From an uncultured bacterium (GTDB lineage: Bacteria > Acidobacteriota > JAQAZP01), in contig CBESOE010000004.1 in the NCBI GenBank assembly GCA_965531145.1, forward strand, positions 24,912 to 88,911: 64,000 nucleotides of DNA, in the 5' to 3' direction. Below the pieces are notes generated by a model. It did no database searches. It was not told where the DNA came from and was given only the letters and a program-made list of their open reading frames with translations. Numbering within the stretch: position 1 is the stretch's first letter; each line of letters starts with the position of its first letter. Positions 3,876 through 38,057 of the stretch are shown here, in pieces. The position numbers were made by a program, and so were the translations under genes.

Positions 3876-4763
3876 ATGACGATGCGGATCAAGACACTGA
3901 CCACCCTCTTCTCCCTGACCCTGGTGGCCCTGCTCTCCTGGAGCGCCGGTGCGGCGGTGCTGGCCGACGACGAGGTTCTGGAGCCGGTGCAGGTAGAGCA
4001 GACGATCTGGGTCACCAGCGGTGACGCGGGTGACGAGGACGTGAAAACCTGGACCACCGACAACGGCGAAGTGATCGTGATCAAGGGTGACTGCAAGCTG
4101 GAAACCATCGGCGAAGATGGTGAAAACGTGATGGTCCAGGTCCACGGCTGTGGCGACGGGGACATCCACAAAGTGATCCATATGGGCGGCATGGGCGGCG
4201 AGCCTGTGCAGCGGACCTTTCTCGGCGTGGGGCTGAGCAGCCTGACCCCGGAGCTGCGGGTGCACTTCGGCTCCTCCGAAGGTACAGGCATCATGGTCTC
4301 CAGCGTGGTGGAGGGGAGCCCGGCCGAGGCGGCAGGCCTCCAGGTGGGTGACGTGATCACGGCCATCGGCGGCATCGAGGCCACTTCAGCCTCGGCGGTG
4401 CAGGAAGCGGTGCGCGAGTTGAGCGAAGGCGACACCGCCCTGGTGGAAGTGCTGCGCAACAGTTCACCGATGAGTTTCGAGGCGGTGCTGACCACCAAGG
4501 AACTCCCCGGGTTCGACTTCAACTTCGATTTCGACCATGTGCTGGAAGGTGTGGAAGGCGCGCACCAGTGCATCATCAAGATGAAGAACGGCGACAACGA
4601 GTTCTACTACGACACCGAAAACCTCGACGAGGCCCTGGAGAAGCTCAACGTCTATCTGGAGGGGCCGGAGTTTGAAGAGATGATCGAAAAGCACCAGGCC
4701 AGCGGTGAGGACATCGAAAAGCGCCTCGAGATTATCGAGAAGAAAGTTGAGGAGATCGAATAG
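3876..4763 (+). CDS. Secreted PDZ-domain protein (no protease domain) with an acidic coiled-coil C-terminus; paralog of 5920..6828
   Basis: Start chosen at MTMRIKTLTTLFSLTLVALLSWSAGAAVLA (signal peptide) inside track ORF 3810..4763. PDZ core FLGVGLSSLTPELRVHFGSSEGTGIMVSSVVEGSPAEAAGLQVGDVITAIGG. C-terminal E/K-rich helix. Confidence 0.7.
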   Translation: MTMRIKTLTTLFSLTLVALLSWSAGAAVLADDEVLEPVQVEQTIWVTSGDAGDEDVKTWTTDNGEVIVIKGDCKLETIGEDGENVMVQVHGCGDGDIHKVIHMGGMGGEPVQRTFLGVGLSSLTPELRVHFGSSEGTGIMVSSVVEGSPAEAAGLQVGDVITAIGGIEATSASAVQEAVRELSEGDTALVEVLRNSSPMSFEAVLTTKELPGFDFNFDFDHVLEGVEGAHQCIIKMKNGDNEFYYDTENLDEALEKLNVYLEGPEFEEMIEKHQASGEDIEKRLEIIEKKVEEIE

Positions 4764-4848
4764 AATAGGACCGGTGGATTCCGACCCGGGTCCCGTTGCG
4801 GGGCCCGGGTTCACCTGATCGACCCGGCGCCATAACCGGTGGAGTGAA

Positions 4849-5415
4849 ATGGTGGAGGCAAGTGAAGCAGAACTGATGGCCCGCACCAGGCAGGGGGACG
4901 AAGAGGCCTTTGCCTTGATCGTGGACCGCTTCAAGGACCGGGTGGTCAACTACCTCTGCCGGCTTACCGGGGACCGCGACCGCGCCGAGGACACGGCCCA
5001 GGAAACCTTCCTCCGCCTCTTCCGCACATCATCCGGCTACCGCGAGGAAGGACACCTGGCCGCTTTAATCTTCCGGATCGCCACCAACCTGGTGCGGTCG
5101 GAGGAGCGGCGTAACCGGCGCTGGCGGCTGTTCCGGGCCACGGTGCCCGCAGGGGGGAACGGCAACGGCGGACCGCCCAATCCCCAGACCCGGCTGCTGC
5201 AGCGGGAAGCCGCGGAGCAGCTCGGCGCCGCCATCGGCGAGCTGCCGCTGAAGTTCCGGGCGCCGCTGATGCTGCGGGAGATCGAGGGCCTGTCCTACCA
5301 GGCCATTGCCGAGGCCATCGGCTGCCGGGAGGGAACGGTGAAGTCGAGAATCAACAGGGGCCGGCAACAGCTGCGGGAGCGGCTGGAGCCATACTGGATC
5401 GGAGGGATGGGATGA
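4849..5415 (+). CDS. ECF (sigma-70 family, group IV) RNA polymerase sigma factor
   Basis: Region 2 (DEEAFALIVDRFKDRVVNYLCRLTGDRDRAEDTAQETFLRLFR) and region 4 HTH (REIEGLSYQAIAEAIGCREGTVKSRINRGRQQLRE); 188 aa. Confidence 0.9.
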   Translation: MVEASEAELMARTRQGDEEAFALIVDRFKDRVVNYLCRLTGDRDRAEDTAQETFLRLFRTSSGYREEGHLAALIFRIATNLVRSEERRNRRWRLFRATVPAGGNGNGGPPNPQTRLLQREAAEQLGAAIGELPLKFRAPLMLREIEGLSYQAIAEAIGCREGTVKSRINRGRQQLRERLEPYWIGGMG

Positions 5416-17807: not shown

Positions 17808-19247
17808 CTACCTCCCCAGCAGGCTCTTCAGAATCCCGAAGATCCAGTAAGTGAACCGGAACTCATCTGGTTTGATCCAGCCCACCACCGCGTTCTCCTC
17901 CGCCAGGTAGATCGCGGCCACCCGCCGCACGTCCCCGGCGGTCACCGCCTCGATGCGGGCCACGTGGTCCGCGAACCGTTCCGCATCCCCCTCGATCACC
18001 GTTGCCCACCCCAGGGCGCTGGCCGCCCCCTCCGGGCCGGAGAGGCCGAAGAGCCGGCGGACCAGCAACCGGCGGCGGGCCTGCCCAAGCTCGTCTTCCG
18101 GAACATCCTCTTCGCGCAGCCGGCGGACCTCCTCCCACATGGCCCGCTCCACAGTCTTTGATCGCACCGAGGGGAGGAAGACGGCAAAGGCCACCAGGCC
18201 GGAGGGGTCGATGGTGCGCTCGAAAATGGTGTCGACGTAGACCGCCAACCGCTGCTCGCGGACCAGGCTGTTGGTCAGCCGCGCCCGGCTGCCACCGGTG
18301 AGCAGTTCGCGGACAACCTCCAGGGCGGGGTAGTCCGGGTGTGAGGCCTCGGGTGTATGAAAACCGAGGCCCACCACCGGTACCTCCACCGGCAGTTCCA
18401 GGGTGTGGCGGGCCAGTTCCTCACCATAGGGCTCCGGTGTTGGCGACGGGCGCTCCAGTGCCGCGCCCACCGGCACCGGCCCGAAGTGGCGGCGAACCAG
18501 TTGCTCGACTTCGAGCTTGTCCACACTCCCGGCCACCACCAGCACCGCATTGCCCGGCTGGTAGTAGCGGTGGTAGAAGTCGCGGCACTGCTCCACGGTG
18601 AAGCTGTTCAGCTGCTCGGCATCACCCAGCACATCGTGGCGGTAGGAGTGGACGGTGAAGAAGAGTTTCTTGTACCAGGAATAGGCAGCGCCCAGCTGGT
18701 CGTTCTCCATCCGCAGCCGCAGTTCCTCCAGCACCACTTGGCGCTCGGTATCCAGCATCCCGGCGTCCAGGGCCAAATTGGCCATGCGATCCGCTTCCAG
18801 CTCCAGGGCCAGTTCCAGGCGCTGCGCCGGCAGGGTCTCGTGGTAAACGGTGACGTCCTCGCTGGTCCAGGCGTTGCTCCGCCCCCCCACCGCCTGGATC
18901 CGGCGGATGAACTCCTCGGGGCCCACCGTGTCGGTCCCGCGAAACATCATGTGTTCGAAGAGGTGGGCCAGGCCGTGCTCACCCTCCCCCTCGTCCCGGC
19001 CGCCCACGCGGTACCAGACCTGCACCGCCACCGCCCCGGAAGATTCGTCGGGAAGCACGAGGACTTCGAGGCCGTTATCCAGAGTGAAGGTATGGAGGGG
19101 ATCGCAGAACGCTGGTGGGACAACAGCACAGGCAAGAAGGAGGGAGAGAAGAAGAAAAAATCGGGGACAGGCACCGCTGCCCTTCGGGAATCGTTGCCAG
19201 TCCCCATTTTTTCCAGTCCCCATTTTTGACAACGAAAAGGCCGTCAT
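17808..19247 (-). CDS. M16 family zinc metallopeptidase (insulinase-like), catalytic subunit
   Basis: Inverted zinc motif HLFEHMMFRG (HxxEH); signal peptide ...PRFFLLLSLLLACAVVPPAF; GAGG-type RBS before ATG at 19247. Confidence 0.85.
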   Translation of the reverse strand: MTAFSLSKMGTGKNGDWQRFPKGSGACPRFFLLLSLLLACAVVPPAFCDPLHTFTLDNGLEVLVLPDESSGAVAVQVWYRVGGRDEGEGEHGLAHLFEHMMFRGTDTVGPEEFIRRIQAVGGRSNAWTSEDVTVYHETLPAQRLELALELEADRMANLALDAGMLDTERQVVLEELRLRMENDQLGAAYSWYKKLFFTVHSYRHDVLGDAEQLNSFTVEQCRDFYHRYYQPGNAVLVVAGSVDKLEVEQLVRRHFGPVPVGAALERPSPTPEPYGEELARHTLELPVEVPVVGLGFHTPEASHPDYPALEVVRELLTGGSRARLTNSLVREQRLAVYVDTIFERTIDPSGLVAFAVFLPSVRSKTVERAMWEEVRRLREEDVPEDELGQARRRLLVRRLFGLSGPEGAASALGWATVIEGDAERFADHVARIEAVTAGDVRRVAAIYLAEENAVVGWIKPDEFRFTYWIFGILKSLLGR

Positions 19248-19275: not shown

Positions 19276-19719
19276 CTATGCGATCTCCACCAGCTCGATA
19301 TCGAAGGTCAGATCCTTGCCGGCCAGCGGGTGGTTGGCATCAAGGGTCACCTCGTCGTCGGTGATCCCGGTGATGGTGAAGTTCACCCGGTGCGCATCAC
19401 CCTCGCCCTCGGCTTCGGACCGGCCCTCCAGCTGGCGACCCAGTTTCAGCTCCAGGCCCTCGGGCATCTCCGAACGTTTGGCCTTGATCACCATCTCGTC
19501 ACGGTGCGGGCCGTAGGCCTGGTCCGAGGTGATTTCCACGGTGCGGGTGTCGCCCACGGCAAGGCCTTCCACCGCTTTCTCGAACCCGGGGATGACCTCG
19601 CTCTTGCCCAGGGTGAAGGAGAGCGGATCGCTCCCCTTGCTGGTATCGAACTCCTTGCCGTCGGCCATTCTCCCGGTATAGTGGATCTTGACCGCGTCGC
19701 CGCTCTTTGCTTTGCTCAT
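19276..19719 (-). CDS. FKBP-type peptidyl-prolyl cis-trans isomerase (SlyD/FkpB-like)
   Basis: Start at MSKAKSGDAVKIHYTGRMADGKEFDTSKGSDPLSFTLGKSEVIPGFEKAVEGLAVGD (FKBP signature) inside track ORF 19276..19839; C-terminal insert-in-flap-like region. Confidence 0.85.
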   Translation of the reverse strand: MSKAKSGDAVKIHYTGRMADGKEFDTSKGSDPLSFTLGKSEVIPGFEKAVEGLAVGDTRTVEITSDQAYGPHRDEMVIKAKRSEMPEGLELKLGRQLEGRSEAEGEGDAHRVNFTITGITDDEVTLDANHPLAGKDLTFDIELVEIA

Positions 19720-19828
19720 ACACTTGTTTTCCGGCCGGGTCCTTCGCCCGGCAGCGGAACACTCCTCATGGTTATGTGAGTACACCTTCAGATCTTGTCC
19801 GAGCCCCGAATCGGGCCCGTAACCGGTG

Positions 19829-20623
19829 TTACTTGACAAATATTTCGACTTTCTCCATCACGTCGCCCTGGCCCCGCTGGGTCCGGGGGTCGACGATCAT
19901 CAGGGTGTCCACCACGCTCAACCCGCGGACGATCACGCCGAAGGCAGTGTGCTTGCCGTTGAGCCCCTTGAACGCCTGTTTGCCGGTAACCAGGAAAAAC
20001 TGGCTGGTGTTGGTGTTGGGGCCGGCGTTGGCCATGGCGATCACGCCCCGCTCCACCTTCAGGGAGGGCAGCGAGTTGTCGAACTTGTAGCCCAGCGCGG
20101 TGTAGAACTCCTCCACCGAGCGGTCGCCAAAAGTCTGCAGCTGTTCCCGGTTGGGAGGCGGAATGATGAAATTGGCCTTCTTCACCGTAATCTTGTCCAG
20201 CCCCAGGGCGGTGGCGCTGATCTCGTTGGGATAGTGGTAGGGGCCGTTGCTGATCCCGGGCAGGATGCCACCCTGGGCCATGAAGCCCTCGATCACCCGG
20301 TGGAACTTGCTGCCGTCGTAAAGGCCGTTGCGCGCCAGGTTGATGAAGCTGGTCACGGTGTACGGCGCGGCCGCCACGTCAAACTTGATGGTGATCGGGC
20401 CCTTGGTGGTGGTGATCACCGCAAAGTATTCTTTGGCCGGATCCACTTCGGGGCCGGCGGGCTTGGAGATCATGCTCCCCGACTTGGCCAGTTTCTCCGC
20501 CCCCTCGGGCACACCCGGTGCCGGGCCTTCGCCTGCCGGCGCCGCGCAGCAGACCAGCAGGGCCAGGATGGCGGTCAGGGCGATACGATTGACATGACTG
20601 TTGGTATTCATCCTCTGGAACAT
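19829..20623 (-). CDS. Secreted cyclophilin-type peptidyl-prolyl cis-trans isomerase
   Basis: Signal peptide MFQRMNTNSHVNRIALTAILALLVCCAAPA; cyclophilin motifs ...FHRVIEGFMAQGG...GVIAMANAGPNTNTSQFFLV...HTAFGVIVRG. The + ORF 19826..22243 (805 aa) is antisense artefact. Confidence 0.85.
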   Translation of the reverse strand: MFQRMNTNSHVNRIALTAILALLVCCAAPAGEGPAPGVPEGAEKLAKSGSMISKPAGPEVDPAKEYFAVITTTKGPITIKFDVAAAPYTVTSFINLARNGLYDGSKFHRVIEGFMAQGGILPGISNGPYHYPNEISATALGLDKITVKKANFIIPPPNREQLQTFGDRSVEEFYTALGYKFDNSLPSLKVERGVIAMANAGPNTNTSQFFLVTGKQAFKGLNGKHTAFGVIVRGLSVVDTLMIVDPRTQRGQGDVMEKVEIFVK

Positions 20624-30661: not shown

Positions 30662-30699
30662 AAAAAATCGGCCCCGCCATCCTGGTGGATGACGGGGCC
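30662..30699 (-). terminator. Rho-independent terminator downstream of the FadL-family gene
   Basis: On the minus strand: GGCCCCGTCATC-cacca-GATGGCGGGGCC followed by GATTTTTTG; sits between the fadL stop (30727) and the TBDR promoter region. Confidence 0.6.
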
Positions 30700-30726: not shown

Positions 30727-32091
30727 CTAGAAGGTCCAGCTCAGCTGGACACTGAGAATATCGACATAGGCCTTATATTCGCCGTGAATAGCCCCGCGGG
30801 TCACTTCCTCGGGCACAGTGCCTTCCTTGTGGATCCCCGCATTGGAGACAAAGATGTGGGCGTAGCCGCCACTCAGGGCAAAGGCATCGTTGATGGTGTA
30901 GGTCGTGCCGAGGGTCAGCCACCAGCGGTCGTTGCCCGGCACCCGCACCGTGCGCAGGGCCGCGTTGGGGATGGGTGACTGGTCATAGGCGCCGCCGAAA
31001 CGGAAGAGCCACTTTTCGCTGGGGTCGTAGTTGAACCCCATGGCCATGCGCCAGGCGTCGTTCCAGTCGAGGGTGGTCACGTTGTCGCTGGCCCCACTCT
31101 CGAACTGGATGCGCAGTTCCTCGACACAGCTCCAGCCGGTCCAGGTCGCATCCGCCATAATCGCCCATTCGTCGGTGAGTTCGTGGAAGATGCTGGCCGA
31201 GGCATTCTGGGGCACCGTGATCTCAGCCGCGGCCGGACCGTCCACCAGGCCGGCCAGACCGGCGAGGATGTCGGTATAGGCATTGGGAGAGCTGAAGTCG
31301 GCGTCCCCCTCCAGGTCGTAGTCGATCTCCGAACGATAGGAAAGACCGTAGCGGGTCCCCTCGGTCTGCTCGAAGAGGAAACCGAGGTTCCAACCGTACC
31401 CGTAGTCATCGGCCTCAATTGTGACAAACCCGTCATCACCCTGGGGGGTCAGCGGCAGGCCGGCGCCCAGGATGGCGTTGATCGTGCCGTAGTCGATGGC
31501 GTTGCTGAAGGTCCCATCCATACTCTGGACGTTTATGCCCAGCCCCATGGAAAACTTGTCGGTGAACTTCCAGGCCACGGTGGGATTGATGTTGAGCGTC
31601 ATCACCTCGGAGTCCACACCGTGGTAGCGACCCTTCCAGTCTTCCTCGTACTTGGTGGCCAGACCGAAGGGCACGCTCACACCGAGACCGAGAAAGAGCT
31701 TCTCGTTTATCTGCCCGGCCCACCAGATATTGGGAACGAGCGTGAGGTCGCCGGCATTTCCCCCGTCACTGCCGGTGAGCGGGATCTCCGCACCCAGCAG
31801 GGGGGTGAGGGTGGAGCCGTGATCCTCGAATTTTGTTGACGGAATGATGGCGTGGAGGCCCACCTCAATGTTCTGCCCCTTGAGCCGGGTCAGGCCCGCC
31901 GGGTTGAAGAAGATGGTGGTGGCGTCCTCGGCCACCGCCGCACCGCCGGCAAAGGCGTTGCCCAACCCCCTCACGCCCTGCTCGATCAGCGCGAAACCGG
32001 AAGCGCGGGCATCCAGCGCGCTGCCCCCCGCCATCAGGGCCGTAATGGTGACGATCAGAGCCAATTTGCAGGTAAACGTTCCTCTCGACAT
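30727..32091 (-). CDS. FadL/OmpP1/TodX family outer-membrane transporter of hydrophobic compounds
   Basis: Start at MSRGTFTCKLALIVTITALMAGGSALDA (signal peptide) inside track ORF 30727..32178. FadL N-terminal hatch motif ...FALIEQGVRGLGNAFAGGAAVAEDATTIFFNPAGL; ends ...QLSWTF. Confidence 0.85.
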   Translation of the reverse strand: MSRGTFTCKLALIVTITALMAGGSALDARASGFALIEQGVRGLGNAFAGGAAVAEDATTIFFNPAGLTRLKGQNIEVGLHAIIPSTKFEDHGSTLTPLLGAEIPLTGSDGGNAGDLTLVPNIWWAGQINEKLFLGLGVSVPFGLATKYEEDWKGRYHGVDSEVMTLNINPTVAWKFTDKFSMGLGINVQSMDGTFSNAIDYGTINAILGAGLPLTPQGDDGFVTIEADDYGYGWNLGFLFEQTEGTRYGLSYRSEIDYDLEGDADFSSPNAYTDILAGLAGLVDGPAAAEITVPQNASASIFHELTDEWAIMADATWTGWSCVEELRIQFESGASDNVTTLDWNDAWRMAMGFNYDPSEKWLFRFGGAYDQSPIPNAALRTVRVPGNDRWWLTLGTTYTINDAFALSGGYAHIFVSNAGIHKEGTVPEEVTRGAIHGEYKAYVDILSVQLSWTF

Positions 32092-32340
32092 TGTTCCCCC
32101 CTTAATTGTTAAGTTATTAATGATTACCTCACAATACCACCGCATCGTGCATTCTTCTGTAATCGCACGATACGGCATTCCGGGTCGCCGTCGATAAAAA
32201 TAGACTGAAAACTGGGACTACTTAAACCAGAATTGCTCTGAAATTTAGATGAAACGGGCATTTATGTCAAGCGGGCGGGCCTCCCCGGCGGCACGGATTA
32301 CCGTGGCGACACCGGGGAACGTGGGATACCGTCTCCGGGG

Positions 32341-33000
32341 CTACTTCTGCTTCCACTCCCCGTTGGGCATCTGGATCCAGTCGCCGGGCCTGGCATCCCC
32401 CCGCAGAGTGACGGCGTAGGTCTCCTTGATTCGCGGCACTTGGGAAAGATCCACGTTTTTCGCGGCGGCGATCTCCTTGAACAGCTGCTCCCGGTCCCGG
32501 TTCTCGTCCTTGATCAACCGCTGGACCTCGGCCCGCTGCTTGAGATCATTGATCGACTGCAAATTGCGGGGGACCAGCAGTGCGTCCTTGCCCTCGCCGA
32601 TCACACCCATGCCCTTGAACTTCCTCAGATCGGGCAGGCGGGCAGCGCGGGAGTCGATGATCCGCCGGATCGCCGGGTTGGTGATCTCGGGCCGCGACAC
32701 CTCGTCGGCATAGGCCGGGGTCACACCCAACAGGAGGTCGAAGAGACCGGCGGAGCTGGGGGCGGCCTCGCCTTCCCCGGCCGCCGGCACCGCGTCCGGC
32801 TCGCCCTCGCCCTGCTCCGCCGTGGCCGCCTCGGCGGCCTTCAGTGCCACCTCCTCCTCGATCTGCTCCGAGATGTCCTTGATCGCCGCTTCCGGAAAGT
32901 ACACGTTGATGGTGACACAGGCGATGACGAACAGAGCGGCCAGGCCGGTGAACGTCATGAGGGTCATTCTGGTTCTCATGGGATGTCTCCTTCTCATCAA
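32341..33000 (-). CDS. YnbE-like lipoprotein segment fused to a DUF1318 (YdbL-like) domain
   Basis: N-terminal lipobox-like LFVIAC followed by VTINVYFPEAAIKDISEQIEEEV (resembles the YnbE INMNVKIEHE core); C-terminal ...NPAIRRIIDSRAARLPDLRKFKGMGVIGEGKDALLVPR...KDENRDREQLFKEIA matches the DUF1318 pattern. Assigned from memory of family motifs. Confidence 0.6.
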   Translation of the reverse strand: MMRRRHPMRTRMTLMTFTGLAALFVIACVTINVYFPEAAIKDISEQIEEEVALKAAEAATAEQGEGEPDAVPAAGEGEAAPSSAGLFDLLLGVTPAYADEVSRPEITNPAIRRIIDSRAARLPDLRKFKGMGVIGEGKDALLVPRNLQSINDLKQRAEVQRLIKDENRDREQLFKEIAAAKNVDLSQVPRIKETYAVTLRGDARPGDWIQMPNGEWKQK

Positions 33001-33043: not shown

Positions 33044-36000
33044 TCAGCGTTCCCTGCCGTCCCCGCCGGTGCTGGTCACCGATTCCGAGAAATCGATGGA
33101 CTGGAACCGGGCCAGCATGGTGCTGAAGGAGACCGTCTTGCCCGGCTCGGCATTGACCACGTCGATACGGAACGGCAGCCGGCCTTTGAGGAACAGTTCC
33201 TTGTCGCCACGGCTCTCGGTGCCGCGGAGATAGAACATGTCCTTTTCCAGACGCATCTTCACACCCAGTTGCTCGTAAGTGTAGCGGTCGAGCAGGGAGT
33301 GGAGCCCGCGGTCAAAGACCGTGATCCGGCCGCCGGTGCCGACGATGGCGATATTGTTTATCGCCTTGACATTTATGGTCTGGGCCACTCCCTTGCGCGG
33401 CACGGTGCGCATCTCCGCCCGGAACCCCACCGGCGTGCCGGCAAAGAGCCGGCAGTTGCTGACCCGCCCCTCGAGAATACCGCTGATCGCCCCGAAGTCG
33501 AATGTCCGGGTGACCTGGACCAGGTCGATCTCGCTGAACTCGGCGGAAAAGGAGAGGCGGGGATAGCGGGAGAGCACCTCCTCGCCGGAGATATCGCTGA
33601 TGATCACCTTCCCGCCAAACAGTGCCATCTCACCGCCACCGTCCACCCGCAAACGGGTGGGCGAAAGCTCCACCCGAGGCAGGTGCCCGTCCAGTTCGCC
33701 CTCGAACAGGGGCCAGTCCATCGCCCGGCTCAGTTCTCCCAGCTGCAGCCCGTCGATGGTCAACCCGGTCTCCAGGTAGCGGCTGTGGCCCAGCAGCCCG
33801 GCCAGGGTCAGCCGCTGGAAGGTGACCGTGCCGCCCAGCAGCGGCAAACTCTGCGAGGCCTCGAGGCTCACCGTGTCCCCCTGGACCACCAGGTCGGAGT
33901 CGGTCCGCTGAACGGTGACGGCGTCGAGCTTCAGCTCGTCAAAACCCATCCGCCCGTGCCGGGCAGCGCCGTCCACCGGCCTCACCCCGTCTTCCCCGGG
34001 CGGCCCCCAGACCAGGTCCAGCGGCAACTCCAGGTCCAGACCCCGCACCGCCATGGTCCGTTCCTCGCCGGTGAGGTCCAGGCCGTCCAGACGCACCCGG
34101 CCCTGGAGCGCGGCGCCCTCACCGTCCAGGTGTCCCTCGGCAAACACGTTGATGCGGCCGCCGGCGTCCAGACGCACCAGCAGCGGCAGCGAATCCCCCA
34201 GCGGCCGCCGGACGCAGCTCTCATAGGCCGAGGCCAGGTCATCCACCCCCAGGCTGGCCGAGAACCGGCGGTCAGGCTCTTCGCTGCCGGAGAAGGATGC
34301 CCGGAGGCGAAGTCCGGGGACCGGCTGCAGGTCGCCCTCGGCCCACCAGTGGCCGGCGCGATCCCCCTCTCCTTCCAGACCGGCGGCCAGACTGACCTGC
34401 GGCTCCAGCTCCCCGAAGTCGCCAAAGAGTGAGTCCCAGAGCAGCTGGAAGCCGCCGGCGGTAGTGGAAGCCTCCACCCGCAGGGAGCTGTCGGCACCGG
34501 CTTCCGCCTGCACCTGCCAGCTGGAGGCCAGGCCCTGAACCGCCCGGGCACCATCTTCCGAGGCGAACCAGGCCTGACCCATCTCCATGGTCCCGGCAGC
34601 TGTCCAGCCGTCCTTCTCGGAGTAGGCGGCATCTCCCCTGCCGCTGAGGGTGGCCTCCAGTTCGTATCCCGGCAGCAGTTCCCCGGTGAGGGGCACCAGT
34701 GCCCGGCGGATGGCCGGCAGATCAGCCTGGTCGAGACGCAGCGCCGCAGTGACCTGGGGCTCCTCGTCCGGGTTCCAGCGGCCATCGCCGGAGATCGTGA
34801 CCAGATCGCCCCATGTTGCCGTCCCGATTTCGAACCGGCCCTGGAGCGATACGGGATCGATCCAGCCCGAACCTGACAGGATCAGGGGCAACACTGACAA
34901 TGGCTTCGGTTGGAGATCGCCGCCGAGGCGCACACCGGGGAAGCGCAGGTTGTTCCGTTCTTCGAAGCGGAAGTCCGCAGCCAGCGTCCCCCCGTTCAAC
35001 GTCAGCGGGCAGGCCTGCCCACGGGCCGATTCGAGGCAGAAGTCCACGCCGTCCACATCCACCGTCCCCTCCACCAGCGGCTCGTCCAGGGTTCCGCTGA
35101 TCCGGCCGGCCGCCCGTGGCAGGCCGTCAAGCCGATACCGTTTCGATATGTTGAAACCAAAACCGGTTGCCGCCAGCCGGCGGAGGTCCGGGATGGACGG
35201 CCCGGTCCAGTTCCACTCCGCTGCCAGCCGGTTCTCCGAGGCACCGCCCAGCATCAACGATCCATCGGCGTGCAGGTCACCGGCCGATGCCGAGGTGAGC
35301 AGGGCCCGACCGGCGGTGAGCCAGTCGCCCGATTCCGTAACCTGCTCCAGAGTGCCCTGGTAGGTCAGGTCCAGCGGGCAGAGGCTGTCCAGTTGCCATT
35401 TGTCTCCGTCCGGCCTGTTCTGGCCACCCCGGAGCAGCGTCAGTGCTTCGGCCCGTGCCTCAAGACGGCAGAGCGGAGCCCCTCCGGTCGGCGCCCGCTC
35501 GAGGGTCAGCTCGGCCCGGCCCCCGCCCGTCACCCCTTCGGGCGCCAGGCCCAGGGCGAACAACAGCCGGACCGGGTCGCCGGTTTCCACGGTAGCGTTT
35601 TCAATCCGCATGTCCCTGCCGTCAGCCGCCATGCCCCCTTCGATGACCAGAGAGGCCAGTCCGGGCGCATCCGCATCAACGGTGTAGAGCCACGCCCCGT
35701 CCGAACCCTCCAGAAGGCGCAGGCTGAAGCCGGGAAATGCCAGCGGCTGGCGGTCCGGGTCACGGAATCCGATTTCGCCCCCGGCCCTGGCCTGGAGCGT
35801 GGCCGCAGCATCCGGAGGGTCGAACCGCACATCGATCTCCACGTCCGCCACCGGGCGGTGGAGATCGAGGGGCGTGTCTTCGACAAACCCGGCCACGTCC
35901 TCGGCCCCGGCCAGAAAGGAGAGCAGCGGGACCAGGGCCAGCTGCCCAGCCCGCAGTCGCACCTCACCACCAAGCCCCTGCCCCAGACCGGTGACCTCGC

Positions 36001-36454
36001 CGCTCACCTCGAACCGGCTCTCGCCCTCCCCGCCCAGCACAACGAGACGGCCGCCGGAGATCCCCAGCCGCCCCACCTCCACACTGGCCGGTTCCTCTCG
36101 GTCCGGCGGCGGCTCTTCACTCCCCCGCACCACGGCCACGACACCCTCCAGGACAAGCTCCTCGAAGCGGTTGTCGAGAATATCCCCAAGGCTGCCGGTG
36201 ACGATGAGCCGCTCCACTTCCAGCGATTCGAGCCAGGTGTATGAGTGTGCCCGACGCAGGTGGAGATCGTGGAGGATAAAGGTCCGCCGGTCATGCAGTT
36301 CCAGCCGGCCCAGATCGACATTGGCGTCCAGGGCCCGGGCCAGTGCCGACCGGACCTGGCGGCGGGGCCAGTCGCGGGCCAGCCAGACGGTGAGGGCCGC
36401 CGCCAGCACCATGGCCAGGACGATCCAGATCAGGATGCGGTACCGCTTTTTCAT
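33044..36454 (-). CDS. AsmA-family, YdbH-like large inner-membrane-anchored protein (candidate intermembrane lipid-transfer protein)
   Basis: 1136 aa; N-terminal TM anchor MKKRYRILIWIVLAMVLAAALTVWLA; long beta-rich periplasmic region; located immediately upstream of the YnbE/YdbL-like gene (ydbH-ynbE-ydbL synteny). Confidence 0.6.
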   Translation of the reverse strand: MKKRYRILIWIVLAMVLAAALTVWLARDWPRRQVRSALARALDANVDLGRLELHDRRTFILHDLHLRRAHSYTWLESLEVERLIVTGSLGDILDNRFEELVLEGVVAVVRGSEEPPPDREEPASVEVGRLGISGGRLVVLGGEGESRFEVSGEVTGLGQGLGGEVRLRAGQLALVPLLSFLAGAEDVAGFVEDTPLDLHRPVADVEIDVRFDPPDAAATLQARAGGEIGFRDPDRQPLAFPGFSLRLLEGSDGAWLYTVDADAPGLASLVIEGGMAADGRDMRIENATVETGDPVRLLFALGLAPEGVTGGGRAELTLERAPTGGAPLCRLEARAEALTLLRGGQNRPDGDKWQLDSLCPLDLTYQGTLEQVTESGDWLTAGRALLTSASAGDLHADGSLMLGGASENRLAAEWNWTGPSIPDLRRLAATGFGFNISKRYRLDGLPRAAGRISGTLDEPLVEGTVDVDGVDFCLESARGQACPLTLNGGTLAADFRFEERNNLRFPGVRLGGDLQPKPLSVLPLILSGSGWIDPVSLQGRFEIGTATWGDLVTISGDGRWNPDEEPQVTAALRLDQADLPAIRRALVPLTGELLPGYELEATLSGRGDAAYSEKDGWTAAGTMEMGQAWFASEDGARAVQGLASSWQVQAEAGADSSLRVEASTTAGGFQLLWDSLFGDFGELEPQVSLAAGLEGEGDRAGHWWAEGDLQPVPGLRLRASFSGSEEPDRRFSASLGVDDLASAYESCVRRPLGDSLPLLVRLDAGGRINVFAEGHLDGEGAALQGRVRLDGLDLTGEERTMAVRGLDLELPLDLVWGPPGEDGVRPVDGAARHGRMGFDELKLDAVTVQRTDSDLVVQGDTVSLEASQSLPLLGGTVTFQRLTLAGLLGHSRYLETGLTIDGLQLGELSRAMDWPLFEGELDGHLPRVELSPTRLRVDGGGEMALFGGKVIISDISGEEVLSRYPRLSFSAEFSEIDLVQVTRTFDFGAISGILEGRVSNCRLFAGTPVGFRAEMRTVPRKGVAQTINVKAINNIAIVGTGGRITVFDRGLHSLLDRYTYEQLGVKMRLEKDMFYLRGTESRGDKELFLKGRLPFRIDVVNAEPGKTVSFSTMLARFQSIDFSESVTSTGGDGRER

Positions 36455-36473
36455 CGGACGATTCCGATTGGTG

Positions 36474-36563
36474 GTGAAAAAAATGGGGTCAGGTACTTTT
36501 CATTTTCATTGCCGCGCTATCCTGAAGAGATGAAAATGAAAAGTACCTGACCCCATTTTTTTC
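36474..36563. terminator. Perfect 35-bp inverted repeat, 20-bp spacer, AT-rich, flanked by A7/T7: bidirectional intrinsic terminator or MITE/REP-like element
   Basis: TGAAAAAAATGGGGTCAGGTACTTTTCATTTTCAT (36474-36508) ... ATGAAAATGAAAAGTACCTGACCCCATTTTTTTCA (36529-36563); GC-rich core stem GGGGTCAGGTAC/GTACCTGACCCC. Lies between the nth stop and the ydbH-like start. Confidence 0.6.
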
Positions 36564-36564
36564 A

Positions 36565-37236
36565 TCATTGCTCCGCCGAGGGGCAGATATCGGCAAGAGT
36601 ACACTGGCCGCATTTCGGTTTGCGTGAGGGGCAGACAGCGCGGCCATGGTCGATGAGCAGGTGGCTGAGCAGGGTCCAGTCCTTGCGGGGAAACAGGGGC
36701 ATCAGGTCCTGTTCGATCTTCTCCGGGCTGCTCTGGCTGCTGAACCCCAGGCGGCCGCTGAGCCGCTTGACGTGGGTGTCCACCACCACACCAATGTTCT
36801 TGCCGAAGGCGTTGCCCAGCACCACGTTGGCGGTCTTTCTCGCCACCCCCCGGAAAGCGGTGAGTTCCTCCATGGTCCGGGGTACCTCGCCACCGTGCTG
36901 CTCGACGATGGCCCGGCTGCAGGCGATCAGCGAAGCCGCCTTGTTGCGGTAGAAACCGGTGGGACGGATCAGTGCCTCCAGTTTTTCCTGATCGGCCCGG
37001 GCCATGGCCGGCGCGTCGGGGTAGGCCGCAAAGAGGGCCGGGGTCACCTTGTTCACCATCACGTCGGTGCACTGGGCGGAGAGGATGGTGGCCGCCAGCA
37101 GACGGAAGGGGCCGTCGTGGACCAGACCGCAGGCGGAATCGGGATAGGCCTTTTTCAACCGCCGCAGGGCCAGGCTGGCGCGGCGGTCTGCCGGGGAACC
37201 GCTGTGGGTCTTCGGTTTACGTGCGGCCATGCTCAC
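36565..37236 (-). CDS. nth: Endonuclease III (DNA glycosylase/AP lyase)
   Basis: HhH-GPD motif ...LVHDGPFRLLAATILSAQCTDVMVNKVTPALF... and C-terminal [4Fe-4S] cluster CPSRKPKCGQCTLADIC. Confidence 0.9.
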   Translation of the reverse strand: MSMAARKPKTHSGSPADRRASLALRRLKKAYPDSACGLVHDGPFRLLAATILSAQCTDVMVNKVTPALFAAYPDAPAMARADQEKLEALIRPTGFYRNKAASLIACSRAIVEQHGGEVPRTMEELTAFRGVARKTANVVLGNAFGKNIGVVVDTHVKRLSGRLGFSSQSSPEKIEQDLMPLFPRKDWTLLSHLLIDHGRAVCPSRKPKCGQCTLADICPSAEQ

Positions 37237-38057
37237 CCGAGGATCGAATAGCCGCCGTCCACGATAATGGTCTGGCCCACGATCTGGTCGGTGCAGCGGT
37301 TGCAGAGAAAGAGGATCACGTCGGCCACGTCATCGGGGGTGGTGAGCCGGCCGGACGGAGTTCGCTCCTTGGCACTCCCGATCAGCTCGTCCCGGTTGGG
37401 GAAATGCTTCAGCGCATCGGTGTCCACCACACCGGCGGAGACGCAGTTGACCCGCACGCCCCTGGGGGCCAGTTCCACGGCCAGGTGGCGGACCAGCGAC
37501 TCCAGTGCGGCCTTGGAAGCACCCACCGCCGTGTAGTTGGGCAGGGCGCGGATGGCACCGAGGGAGGAGACGGCAATGATGTGGCCCCGGCGGCCTTCCA
37601 TCAGCGGCACGGCATGACGGGCCAGGGGGATCATGGTGCCGGCGTTGATATCCATGGTCCAGTGCCAGTGGCGCTCGGTGAGTTCCAGGGCCGGTTTGAG
37701 CACCCCCGAAGCGGCGTTGGAGACCAGGATGTCCAGCTGGCCGAACTCCTCCCTGATCTGCCGGAACATGTCGGCCACGGCCTTCTCGTTGGCCACGTTG
37801 GCCTTGACGATCAGGGCCTTCATCCCGGCCGCCCTGACTTCCTCGGCCACTTCCTCGGCGGCCTTGCGCTGACGAAAGTAATTGACCACGATATGGCAAT
37901 TGGCCTTGGCCAACCGCACGGCGATGGCGCGGCCGATCCCCCGGCTGCCGCCGGTGATCAGGGCCACCCGGCCGTGCTGGTGCAGCCCGCACCCCCCGCT
38001 TTCGCAATCCCTGGATACTGATTTCACCTGCCACCCCCTTGAGATCACCCGGACCAC
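37233..38057 (-). CDS. SDR family NAD(P)-dependent oxidoreductase (FabG/FabL-like)
   Basis: Cofactor motif ALITGGSRGIGRAIA; NAASG; catalytic YTAVGASKAAL (YxxxK). 4-bp overlap with nth. True start may lie downstream of the track ATG. Confidence 0.8.
   Translation of the reverse strand: MVRVISRGWQVKSVSRDCESGGCGLHQHGRVALITGGSRGIGRAIAVRLAKANCHIVVNYFRQRKAAEEVAEEVRAAGMKALIVKANVANEKAVADMFRQIREEFGQLDILVSNAASGVLKPALELTERHWHWTMDINAGTMIPLARHAVPLMEGRRGHIIAVSSLGAIRALPNYTAVGASKAALESLVRHLAVELAPRGVRVNCVSAGVVDTDALKHFPNRDELIGSAKERTPSGRLTTPDDVADVILFLCNRCTDQIVGQTIIVDGGYSILG

Follow-up and report, generated by a model that had tools for sequence, protein, structure and literature searches.

A 90-bp palindrome occupies positions 36475–36564 of a 64-kb stretch of DNA from an uncultured member of the Acidobacteriota (contig CBESOE010000004.1), where it lies between the endonuclease III gene nth and a gene for a protein of 1,136 amino acids; we refer to the whole 64-kb stretch as the window, and the numbering of the element follows it. 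The palindrome is a head-to-head dimer of two inverted-repeat units of the GGGGWSAS type, and we interpret it, with a probability of about three in four, as a nonautonomous, REPIN-like inverted-repeat dimer of TIRYT-type terminal repeats, a "TIRtron" without its gene, inside an apparent operon. Its membership of the family is evident from the core, the flanks and the polarity of the repeats, together with the association of the family with Y1 transposases resembling those of subclass 2.1. By analogy, GGGGWSAS palindromes are probably moved by IS200-like tyrosine transposases (IS, insertion sequence).

Structure of the Palindrome

The element was delimited by inverted-repeat detection, a direct check of the arms and folding. 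Its left arm (36475–36509, plus strand; TGAAAAAAATGGGGTCAGGTACTTTTCATTTTCAT) consists of an A-rich flank, the core and a T-rich inner part, and it is the perfect complement of the right arm (36530–36564, minus strand), which was also recovered in a profile search; between them lies an asymmetric loop of 20 nt (36510–36529), reading TGCCGCGCTATCCTGAAGAG on the plus strand. The repeat finder had reported slightly longer arms (36472–36509 and 36530–36567, 38 nt at 97% complementarity), of which perfect complementarity covers 35 nt on each side. The conserved family core ATGGGGTCAGGTAC, which includes GGGGTCAG and fits the published GGGGWSAS, stands at 36483–36496 on the plus strand; a second copy, identified by sequence match, stands at 36543–36556 on the minus strand and reads GTACCTGACCCCAT on the plus strand. 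With GGGGTCAG in both arms, each arm fits GGGGWSAS, and the left arm matches the arm profile of the family described below at E = 2e-6. Read along the plus strand, the element runs GGGGTCAGGTAC...GTACCTGACCCC, with the GGGG ends pointing outward on both sides; a T7 tract (36556–36562, plus strand) pairs with the A7 at 36477–36483, and the AT-rich inner stem of 13 nt is TTTTCATTTTCAT.

A first-pass annotation of the window had described perfect 35-nt arms, A7/T7 flanks and the GC cores GGGGTCAGGTAC and GTACCTGACCCC, all of which are borne out here; it gave the length correctly as 90 bp but placed the element one base too far to the left, at 36474–36563. Its picture of an AT-rich element in GC-rich DNA also holds, with the approximate values of 35% and 66% replaced by a measured 37.8% for the element and 64.7% for the window. 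The mirror-image peptide tails (...KKMGSGTFHFH...) that it noticed in two open reading frames (ORFs) both exist: the ORF at 35799–36533 (plus strand) ends in ...VVKKMGSGTFHFHCRAILKR and that at 36506–37072 (minus strand) in ...MMKKMGSGTFHFHLFRIARQ, each directly before its stop codon.

The palindrome is both the longest and the best inverted repeat of the whole 64 kb. The hairpin has folding energies of −61 and −68 kcal/mol as RNA, for the two strands, and of −37.6 kcal/mol as DNA, with a z-score of about −10 to −11; none of 200 shuffled sequences folded as well. The locus is identical, base for base, in three independent public assemblies, and the element is therefore not an assembly artefact; assemblies that hold it include GCA_964623175.1 (contig CAZUSZ010000005.1) and ERZ23877653. 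Against Rfam, the element produced only sub-threshold, generic microRNA-hairpin matches, and the 64-kb window produced no family; a search of the literature for the exact core strings returned unrelated primers only.

A Dispersed Family with a Common Core

The core occurs in the same outward-GGGG polarity, in hairpins with unrelated interiors, at at least 160 genome and metagenome loci on contigs with a GC content of 0.35–0.73. The metagenomes were searched with a pattern of two arms, ATGGGGNCAGNTAC-N18-48-GTANCTGNCCCCAT, which matched at least 120 stretches; among the matches listed were 112 distinct elements with 20-nt flanks, on contigs of 35–73% GC. The one-arm 18-mer AAAAATGGGGTCAGGTAC was found in 42 stretches among the GTDB species representatives, against about 17 expected by uniform chance (596 Gb), and many of these genome matches lie in repeated or palindromic settings. 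Several species have multiple palindromic or clustered copies, among them members of the Planctomycetaceae, Thermomonas, Rudaea, Peregrinibacteria and delta-proteobacteria: Rudaea and Thermomonas carry dense hairpin clusters, the Peregrinibacteria carry clusters of direct repeats, and one Planctomycetaceae genome has four loci that share even GGTGAAAAATGGGGTCAGGTAC with the window. Further matches to the 18-mer were found in the Pirellulaceae, in a hairpin of the Nomurabacteria and in delta-proteobacterial hairpins.

The positions that the search pattern left free are informative about the conserved unit. The fifth base of the core is, among the matches listed, A in 186 cases, T in 37, C in 1 and G in 0, which corresponds to the W of GGGGWSAS; the ninth is unrestricted, the four positions ahead of ATGGGG are A-rich, and bases 3–8 after TAC are T-rich. 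The A-tract flank of the window element, and what the first-pass annotation had called its AT-rich stem extension, are therefore traits of the family. The unit common to several phyla, an A-rich flank, ATGGGGWCAGNTAC and a T-rich flank, is longer than the published 8-nt GGGGWSAS and extends published accounts modestly. The perfect arms have a median length of 26 nt across the family; the 35 nt seen in the window are attained by 16 of 117 elements.

Interiors vary between subfamilies, and some subfamilies are present in multiple copies within one sample, for example on dozens of contigs of sample Ga0123353. Many contigs of this sample (L096, L103, L140, L141, L146, L149, L165, L193 and L194) break off precisely at the element, suggesting that one organism carries the family in high copy. 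Another contig of the sample (L174, Ga0123353_10057050, 6,254 nt) is a perfect palindrome over its full length, centered on a family element, and is most likely a fold-back artefact of assembly or amplification.

Direct tandem or closely spaced copies of the motif are found as well (L071, 3547–3790; L062, 5416–5500; L069, L079 and L090), with a period of 119 nt in a Thermomonas metagenome-assembled genome (MAG) and a spacing of about 35–58 nt in MAGs of the Sedimentisphaerales and Peregrinibacteria; in L062 a RAYT-like ORF is situated about 200 nt away from the closely spaced repeats. Among 2.9 million viral contigs, neither the subfamily arm nor the two-arm family pattern was found (0 matches each), and a search with one arm yielded 45 single-arm matches at chance level; the element is accordingly not phage-borne.

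Within the window, we searched for further copies with the exact core, with paired GGGGWSAS and with a profile of 321 arms. The arm-profile search revealed a second, degenerate element of the same class at 19154–19228 (no strand assigned), which reads GAAAAAATCGGGGACAGGCACCG...CGTTGCCAGTCCCCATTTTTTC followed by an extra CAGTCCCCATTTTT, has arms of 27 nt at 78% and reaches a folding z-score of only −2.5. It is situated between a gene for an FKBP-type isomerase (19276–19839, minus strand) and a gene for an M16 peptidase (minus strand). Beyond the known arms and this weak element at 19.2 kb, no further copies were found within the 64 kb. The multiple intergenic copies by which the first-pass annotation had proposed to recognize a mobile repeat exist across public data, with one perfect and one degenerate copy inside the window.

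Association with Y1 Transposases

RAYT-like genes with long terminal inverted repeats have been named TIRYT, within units called TIRtrons; many TIRtron repeats share GGGGWSAS and form moderately abundant families, often arranged as dimers or clusters (Di Nocera et al. 2013, PMC3733652). Most TIRYTs belong to TnpA-Y1 subclass 2.1, proteins of about 238 amino acids with the widest taxonomic spread, whose HUH motif is NHVH or NH[YF]H and whose Y motif is YIELNP or Y[IV]HLNP, with GGGG[AT][CG]A[CG] as the consensus of the flanking repeats (Quentin et al. 2018, PMC6006769). The TIRYT clade equals RAYT Group 1, and its flanking 16-mers have only about 12 occurrences genome-wide (Bertels et al. 2017, PMC5581495).

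The ORFs of about 160 family loci (1.05 Mb) were clustered all against all, and tblastn with family members added the locus L062. This revealed a single recurrent family outside housekeeping functions, a set of RAYT-like proteins encoded at ten distinct loci; protein clusters 1 and 2 (response regulators and histidine kinases; ABC ATPases) were dismissed as partners, being ubiquitous families. The curated Pfam cut-off for Y1_Tnp (IS200-like) was passed by seven of the eight RAYT-like members scanned. Their best NCBIfam match was the REP-associated tyrosine transposase (REP being short for repetitive extragenic palindrome), with E-values of 1e-15 to 1e-21 for the intact proteins, below the cut-off of that model, and for the one member searched against solved structures (from L171) the best match was E. 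coli TnpA-REP (4ER8, E = 3e-5). The histidines of the HUH motif are conserved, as is the tyrosine of RY..NP in every member long enough to reach that site. Class 2 TnpA-Y1 genes are present in about 25% of species, in 1.5–1.9 copies each (Quentin et al. 2018, PMC6006769); from these frequencies we estimate that random bacterial DNA holds about 0.1 such gene per Mb, so that ten in 1.05 Mb represent an excess of roughly a hundred-fold.

Eight of the ten RAYT-like genes are bracketed by the repeats, with GGGGWCAG on the left reading toward the gene and the inverted CTGWCCCC on the right, irrespective of the strand of the gene and with single or dimeric units on either side. The palindrome in the window has the same polarity and therefore looks like a bracketing unit without its gene. 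The bracketing repeats contain GGGGTCAGGTAC at L137, L171, L080 and L055, cores of the GGGGACAG type at L139 and L144/145, and other cores of the GGGGTCAG type at L050 and L066. Annotated transposase genes on isolate plasmids are bracketed in the same manner in Iodobacter fluviatilis, Rhodospirillum rubrum ATCC 11170 and Pseudomonas aeruginosa, and that of Skermanella rosea has copies of the motif upstream only. The Iodobacter gene encodes WP_130108377.1 and has repeats containing GGGGTCAGGTAC. Genes of type II toxin–antitoxin systems (HipA, death-on-curing and MazEF) adjoin three of these four TIRYT-like plasmid transposase genes (L219–L222).

Motifs of subclass 2.1 (HUH motif NH[VYF]H, Y motif Y[IV]ELNP) were found in five proteins. 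Four of them (L050, L066, L080 and L171) have the Y motif, with NHVH as the HUH motif in the three that are intact; the fifth (L055) has NHYH, in an ORF that ends before the Y motif. The proteins of L137, L139 and L179 are close variants with YVE[RN]NP, and that of L144/145 (NHLH, YIHQNP) is a better fit to subclass 2.6.

Gain, Loss and Inversion at the nth Spacer

A second copy of the window's own subfamily was found on a metagenome contig (L129), in another gene context downstream of an unrelated gene for a protein of 200 amino acids. Its inner arms are identical to those of the window element at 26 of 27 and 27 of 27 positions, and its loop, which agrees in length and at both ends, is identical at 11 of 20 positions; the outer flanks are unrelated, and the A7/T7 tracts are not shared.

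At the orthologous position itself, an element is present in a strain whose nth is 98.2% identical in nucleotide sequence (L217, 963–1053; JGI 3300059818). Here the loop is inverted relative to the flanking genes and, once flipped, identical to that of the window at 18 of 20 positions. Two substitutions are compensated in both arms (GGTAC/GTACC to GGCAC/GTGCC, and CTTTTC/GAAAAG to CTATTC/GAATAG), one substitution at the W position is uncompensated, and A8 stands in place of A7. The 25-nt spacer past the element differs at seven positions, although nth differs by less than 2%. A flipped loop together with compensated arm changes in near-identical strains constitutes a natural example of palindrome maintenance, which again goes modestly beyond published accounts.

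More distant relatives, with nth proteins of 93%, 91% and 88% identity (L091, L092 and L218), have a spacer without the element; in the second of these, only a mini-hairpin, AAAATGGGAGGGACCCATTTT, is found at about 4745–4765. At 90% identity (L094, 745–758), GTCTGACCCCATTTTG encloses the nth stop codon; a 13-nt piece of it, CTGACCCCATTTT, overlaps that codon and matches the end of the window element's right arm at every base. Both this piece and the mini-hairpin may have been left behind by earlier elements, as remnants or footprints. At 84% identity (L095) a different member of the family, with the core GGGGACAGCTACC, is present. The site is hence polymorphic for both presence and orientation of the element, and the states of the spacer across relatives match what would be expected of a mobile repeat, namely gain, loss and turnover. 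The earlier description of the element as recently inserted is roughly right, given its presence at 98% nth identity and its absence at 93%, 91% and 88% protein identity.

The spacers of L091 (about 4700–4770), L092 (about 4900–4940) and L218 (about 680–720) share a conserved CTTGT(A/G)T...CGGGATATA(A/T) and are variable elsewhere. This motif, possibly the promoter or operator that the large gene had ancestrally, is absent from the spacers of the window and L217.

Gene Neighborhood

Both neighbors of the element lie on the minus strand, and the site is codirectional rather than convergent. The gene nth (36565–37230, minus strand; 221 amino acids), identified as such in the first-pass annotation and bearing an HhH-GPD domain, has a TGA stop codon (36567–36565) that forms the immediate border of the right arm; its closest named homologues are found in MAGs of the Gemmatimonadales and Holophagales, at 61–65% identity. 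Two nucleotides upstream of nth lies a gene for a short-chain dehydrogenase (SDR; 37233–38057, minus strand), which is the probable start of the operon since a promoter-like site (38148–38120) precedes it. On the other side, the gene for the protein of 1,136 amino acids (33044–36454, minus strand) has its ATG (36454) 20 nt past the left arm and is followed downstream by a DUF1318 gene (32341–33000, minus strand). The promoter scan found no promoter-like site between the hairpin and the large gene, so that the element apparently lies within a four-gene operon (SDR, nth, large gene and DUF1318). The next promoter-like site (32270–32242), together with a textbook terminator (30699–30670), brackets a fadL-like gene.

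The large protein had been labeled "ydbH-like". It has no match in Pfam even at E = 10, and the label is backed only by the DUF1318 gene downstream; in E. coli, the arrangement is ydbH–ynbE–ydbL. The pair formed by the large gene and the DUF1318 gene is kept in all relatives that could be checked.

The terminator at 30670–30699 (minus strand) has a 13-bp stem with 10 G–C pairs followed by GATTTTTTGC, directly after the fadL/TodX-like gene (30727–32178), and it shows ordinary terminators to be in use in this organism. Apart from it, terminator-like matches in the window stay at chance level.

A Mobile Repeat, a Terminator or a Control Element

In the mechanism that we propose, the dimer would be two inverted copies of the terminal repeat that brackets IS200-related HUH/Y1 genes (TIRYT, RAYT Group 1, TnpA-Y1 subclass 2.1), each arm combining an A-rich flank, the core ATGGGG-W-CAG-N-TAC, which contains GGGGWSAS, and a T-rich inner part. 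In single-stranded form, for instance at a replication fork, the arms would fold into a long hairpin, and a cognate transposase may recognize, cut and rejoin such hairpins in analogy with IS200/IS605 TnpA and E. coli TnpA-REP; copies would then spread to new intergenic sites, with the dimer as the putative replicating unit. The element under study would have landed, or been retained, directly after the nth stop codon. In the transcript, its 35-bp hairpin would be followed by A and U7, the U7 of the minus-strand RNA being encoded by the A7 at 36477–36483, and the hairpin would probably also serve as a partial intrinsic terminator or as a stabilizer of the 3' end of the nth mRNA, with less read-through into the large downstream gene and lower expression of the two downstream genes. 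The RNA hairpin with its U7 thus probably attenuates or stabilizes transcripts. Selection on the hairpin, or conversion between the arms, may keep them paired, and the loop would be able to invert.

Several observations weigh against this interpretation. No Y1 transposase gene is present in the 64-kb window or at the orthologous loci, and one perfect dimer and one degenerate copy in 64 kb is a low number for an active family; the low density does agree with the roughly 12 genome-wide occurrences reported for Group 1. No REP-like hairpins were found next to subclass 2.1 genes (Quentin et al. 2018, PMC6006769), and biochemical evidence of cleavage or movement of the repeats by TIRYT enzymes was not found in two papers on TIRYTs (PMC3733652, PMC6006769). 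The family was collected via a search for the core, so that conservation of the core arises partly by construction, which leaves as independent evidence only the N positions, the flanking bases, the polarity and the link to transposases. The true ends of the element are uncertain because the A7/T7 flanks are not shared with the L129 copy. As to termination, a simple terminator scan, whose limits the stem and loop exceed, does not call the hairpin at 36475–36564.

The strongest competitor holds that the palindrome is a locally evolved intrinsic terminator of nth, bidirectional in form and without mobile ancestry, its similarity to the family being convergent. Such a terminator would account for the GGGG/CCCC stem base followed by A and U7 on the transcript with a matching A7 upstream, and for the position immediately after the nth stop codon; the minus-strand RNA ...GUACCUGACCCC-A-UUUUUUU does combine a hairpin, folding at −61 kcal/mol, with a U tract, in an atypical geometry. 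The use of classic terminators by this organism, such as that at 30699–30670 behind the fadL-like gene, is also in its favor, and the compensated arm changes in L217 would suit selection on an RNA hairpin. We nevertheless consider a purely local origin unlikely. The 14-nt core, its polarity and the A/T-rich flanks are common to more than 160 loci of unrelated organisms, the L129 copy shares 53 of 54 inner-arm bases in another gene context, and the motif brackets Y1 transposase genes. The combination of a 35-bp stem and a 20-nt loop departs widely from ordinary terminator geometry, and the scan does not call it; the element is missing from relatives with 93%, 91% and 88% nth identity; and the two downstream genes, with no promoter-like site of their own, would be silenced by an efficient terminator. 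The orientation of the genes flanking family sites (34 codirectional, 19 convergent and 13 divergent in a crude count) reveals no strong terminator-like bias; these figures come from a crude longest-ORF caller and were used as rough orientation counts only, and the 26 sites that it placed inside an ORF likely reflect overextended or spurious ORFs rather than true intragenic copies. Termination is possible as an added function of the element.

Of the functions proposed in the first-pass annotation, a mobile palindrome resembling REPs or miniature inverted-repeat transposable elements (MITEs) is supported by the more than 160 unrelated loci, the L129 copy, the bracketing of Y1 genes and the GGGGWSAS family match. 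The bidirectional terminator fares less evenly: the GGGG/CCCC base and the A and U7 fit, but the neighbors are codirectional, the interval from the hairpin to the large gene has no promoter-like site, and the A/T-rich flanks are a trait of the family. A protein-binding site survives only in the sense of arms presumed to be recognized by a transposase.

An alternative is that the palindrome has taken the place of the ancestral control region of the large ydbH-like/DUF1318 operon and may now work as an invertible or variable attenuator or promoter cassette, a reading that arises because the asymmetric loop lies in opposite orientations in strains with 98% identical nth. We regard it as improbable; were it true, a domesticated relic of a Y1 transposon would set the expression of an envelope gene cluster, and would not merely be selfish DNA or a passive terminator. 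It is very doubtful, too, that the palindrome is in general a regulatory one, an operator or invertible control element of the large gene in place of its ancestral promoter region. The loss of the CTTGTnT...CGGGATATA motif from the window and L217 where L091, L092 and L218 retain it, the flipped loop, and the end of the hairpin only 20 nt before the start codon would all suit regulation, but there are no promoter-like hexamers in or beside the element and no adjacent regulator gene, the position of family members relative to gene starts is inconsistent by the crude count given above, and inversion of the loop is expected of any palindrome.

Scarcely credible is a classical MITE of a DDE-type IS (a relative of IS630/Tc1 or IS5) moved by cut-and-paste with target-site duplication, which would explain a short, noncoding sequence with terminal inverted repeats between genes but conflicts with the lack of a flanking direct repeat at either the 90-bp boundary (...GCAATGA/TGAAAA...TTTTCA/CCACC; GCAATGA against CCACCAA) or the 74-bp boundary (A-run against T-run), with Y1/HUH being the only recurrent transposase family in the collected loci, and with the absence of any match in the 2.9 million viral contigs.

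Read as a gene-less TIRtron dimer, the element explains both the conspicuous, AT-rich perfect hairpin and the two spurious ORF tails, and it would mark a likely attenuation point in the operon.

Comparison with Known Systems

With intrinsic terminators the element shares a G+C-rich stem base followed by a U tract, an A tract upstream and a hairpin directly after a stop codon; it differs in a 35-bp stem and 20-nt loop that are far larger than usual and in a sequence drawn from a dispersed family. Intrinsic terminators derived from repeats are known from the inverted pairs of uptake sequences in Neisseria and Haemophilus. Bacterial MITEs (Correia/NEMIS, RUP, Nezha and ERIC; listed in PMC3733652) are likewise small, noncoding and intergenic, with terminal inverted repeats and the capacity to fold in mRNA, but for the present element we found neither a target-site duplication nor a DDE transposase partner, the partner family being Y1/HUH. 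Similarity to SRP RNA (GGTCAGGT; SRP, signal recognition particle), sigma-54 or LexA boxes, a CRISPR-like origin, ends of IS3/IS407 or Tn3, and uptake sequences were also considered and dropped for want of support.

The resemblance to REPs and REPINs (Nunvar 2010; Bertels & Rainey 2011, PMC3116915; TnpA-REP, 4ER8) is closer: two repeat units in inverted orientation on either side of a spacer pair into a long hairpin, compensatory changes across the hairpin, reported to be common in REPINs, are also seen between the window and L217, and the family is tied to a usually single-copy Y1 transposase that is bracketed by the repeats. Unlike in canonical REPs and REPINs (RAYT Groups 2 and 3), there is no GTAG or GTGG at the foot of the hairpin, the nearest equivalent being a GTAC inside the long stem on the loop side of GGGG. 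The proteins found here also fall below the NCBIfam cut-off for REP-associated tyrosine transposases. Classical REPs are species-specific in sequence, whereas the core described here spans phyla and would for that reason be a convenient handle for automatic element finding and for the biochemistry of TIRYTs. The Y1 transposases that the family brackets belong to the RAYT group that is the largest and the least well understood.

The closest match is to the TIRtron/TIRYT repeats. The differences are that a cognate transposase was not found within the 64-kb window or at the orthologous loci, that the TTTTCATTTTCAT inner stem and the A7/T7 ends are specific to the window's subfamily or locus, and that the stretch conserved here (ATGGGGWCAGNTAC with its A-rich and T-rich flanks) is longer than published. 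Shared with them are GGGGWSAS in each arm, the outward-GGGG polarity, the dimeric arrangement, a probably moderate to low copy number, the intergenic location and a very wide host range. The palindrome behind nth is neither a new kind of element nor a plain terminator, but a well-preserved member of a published and little-studied class.

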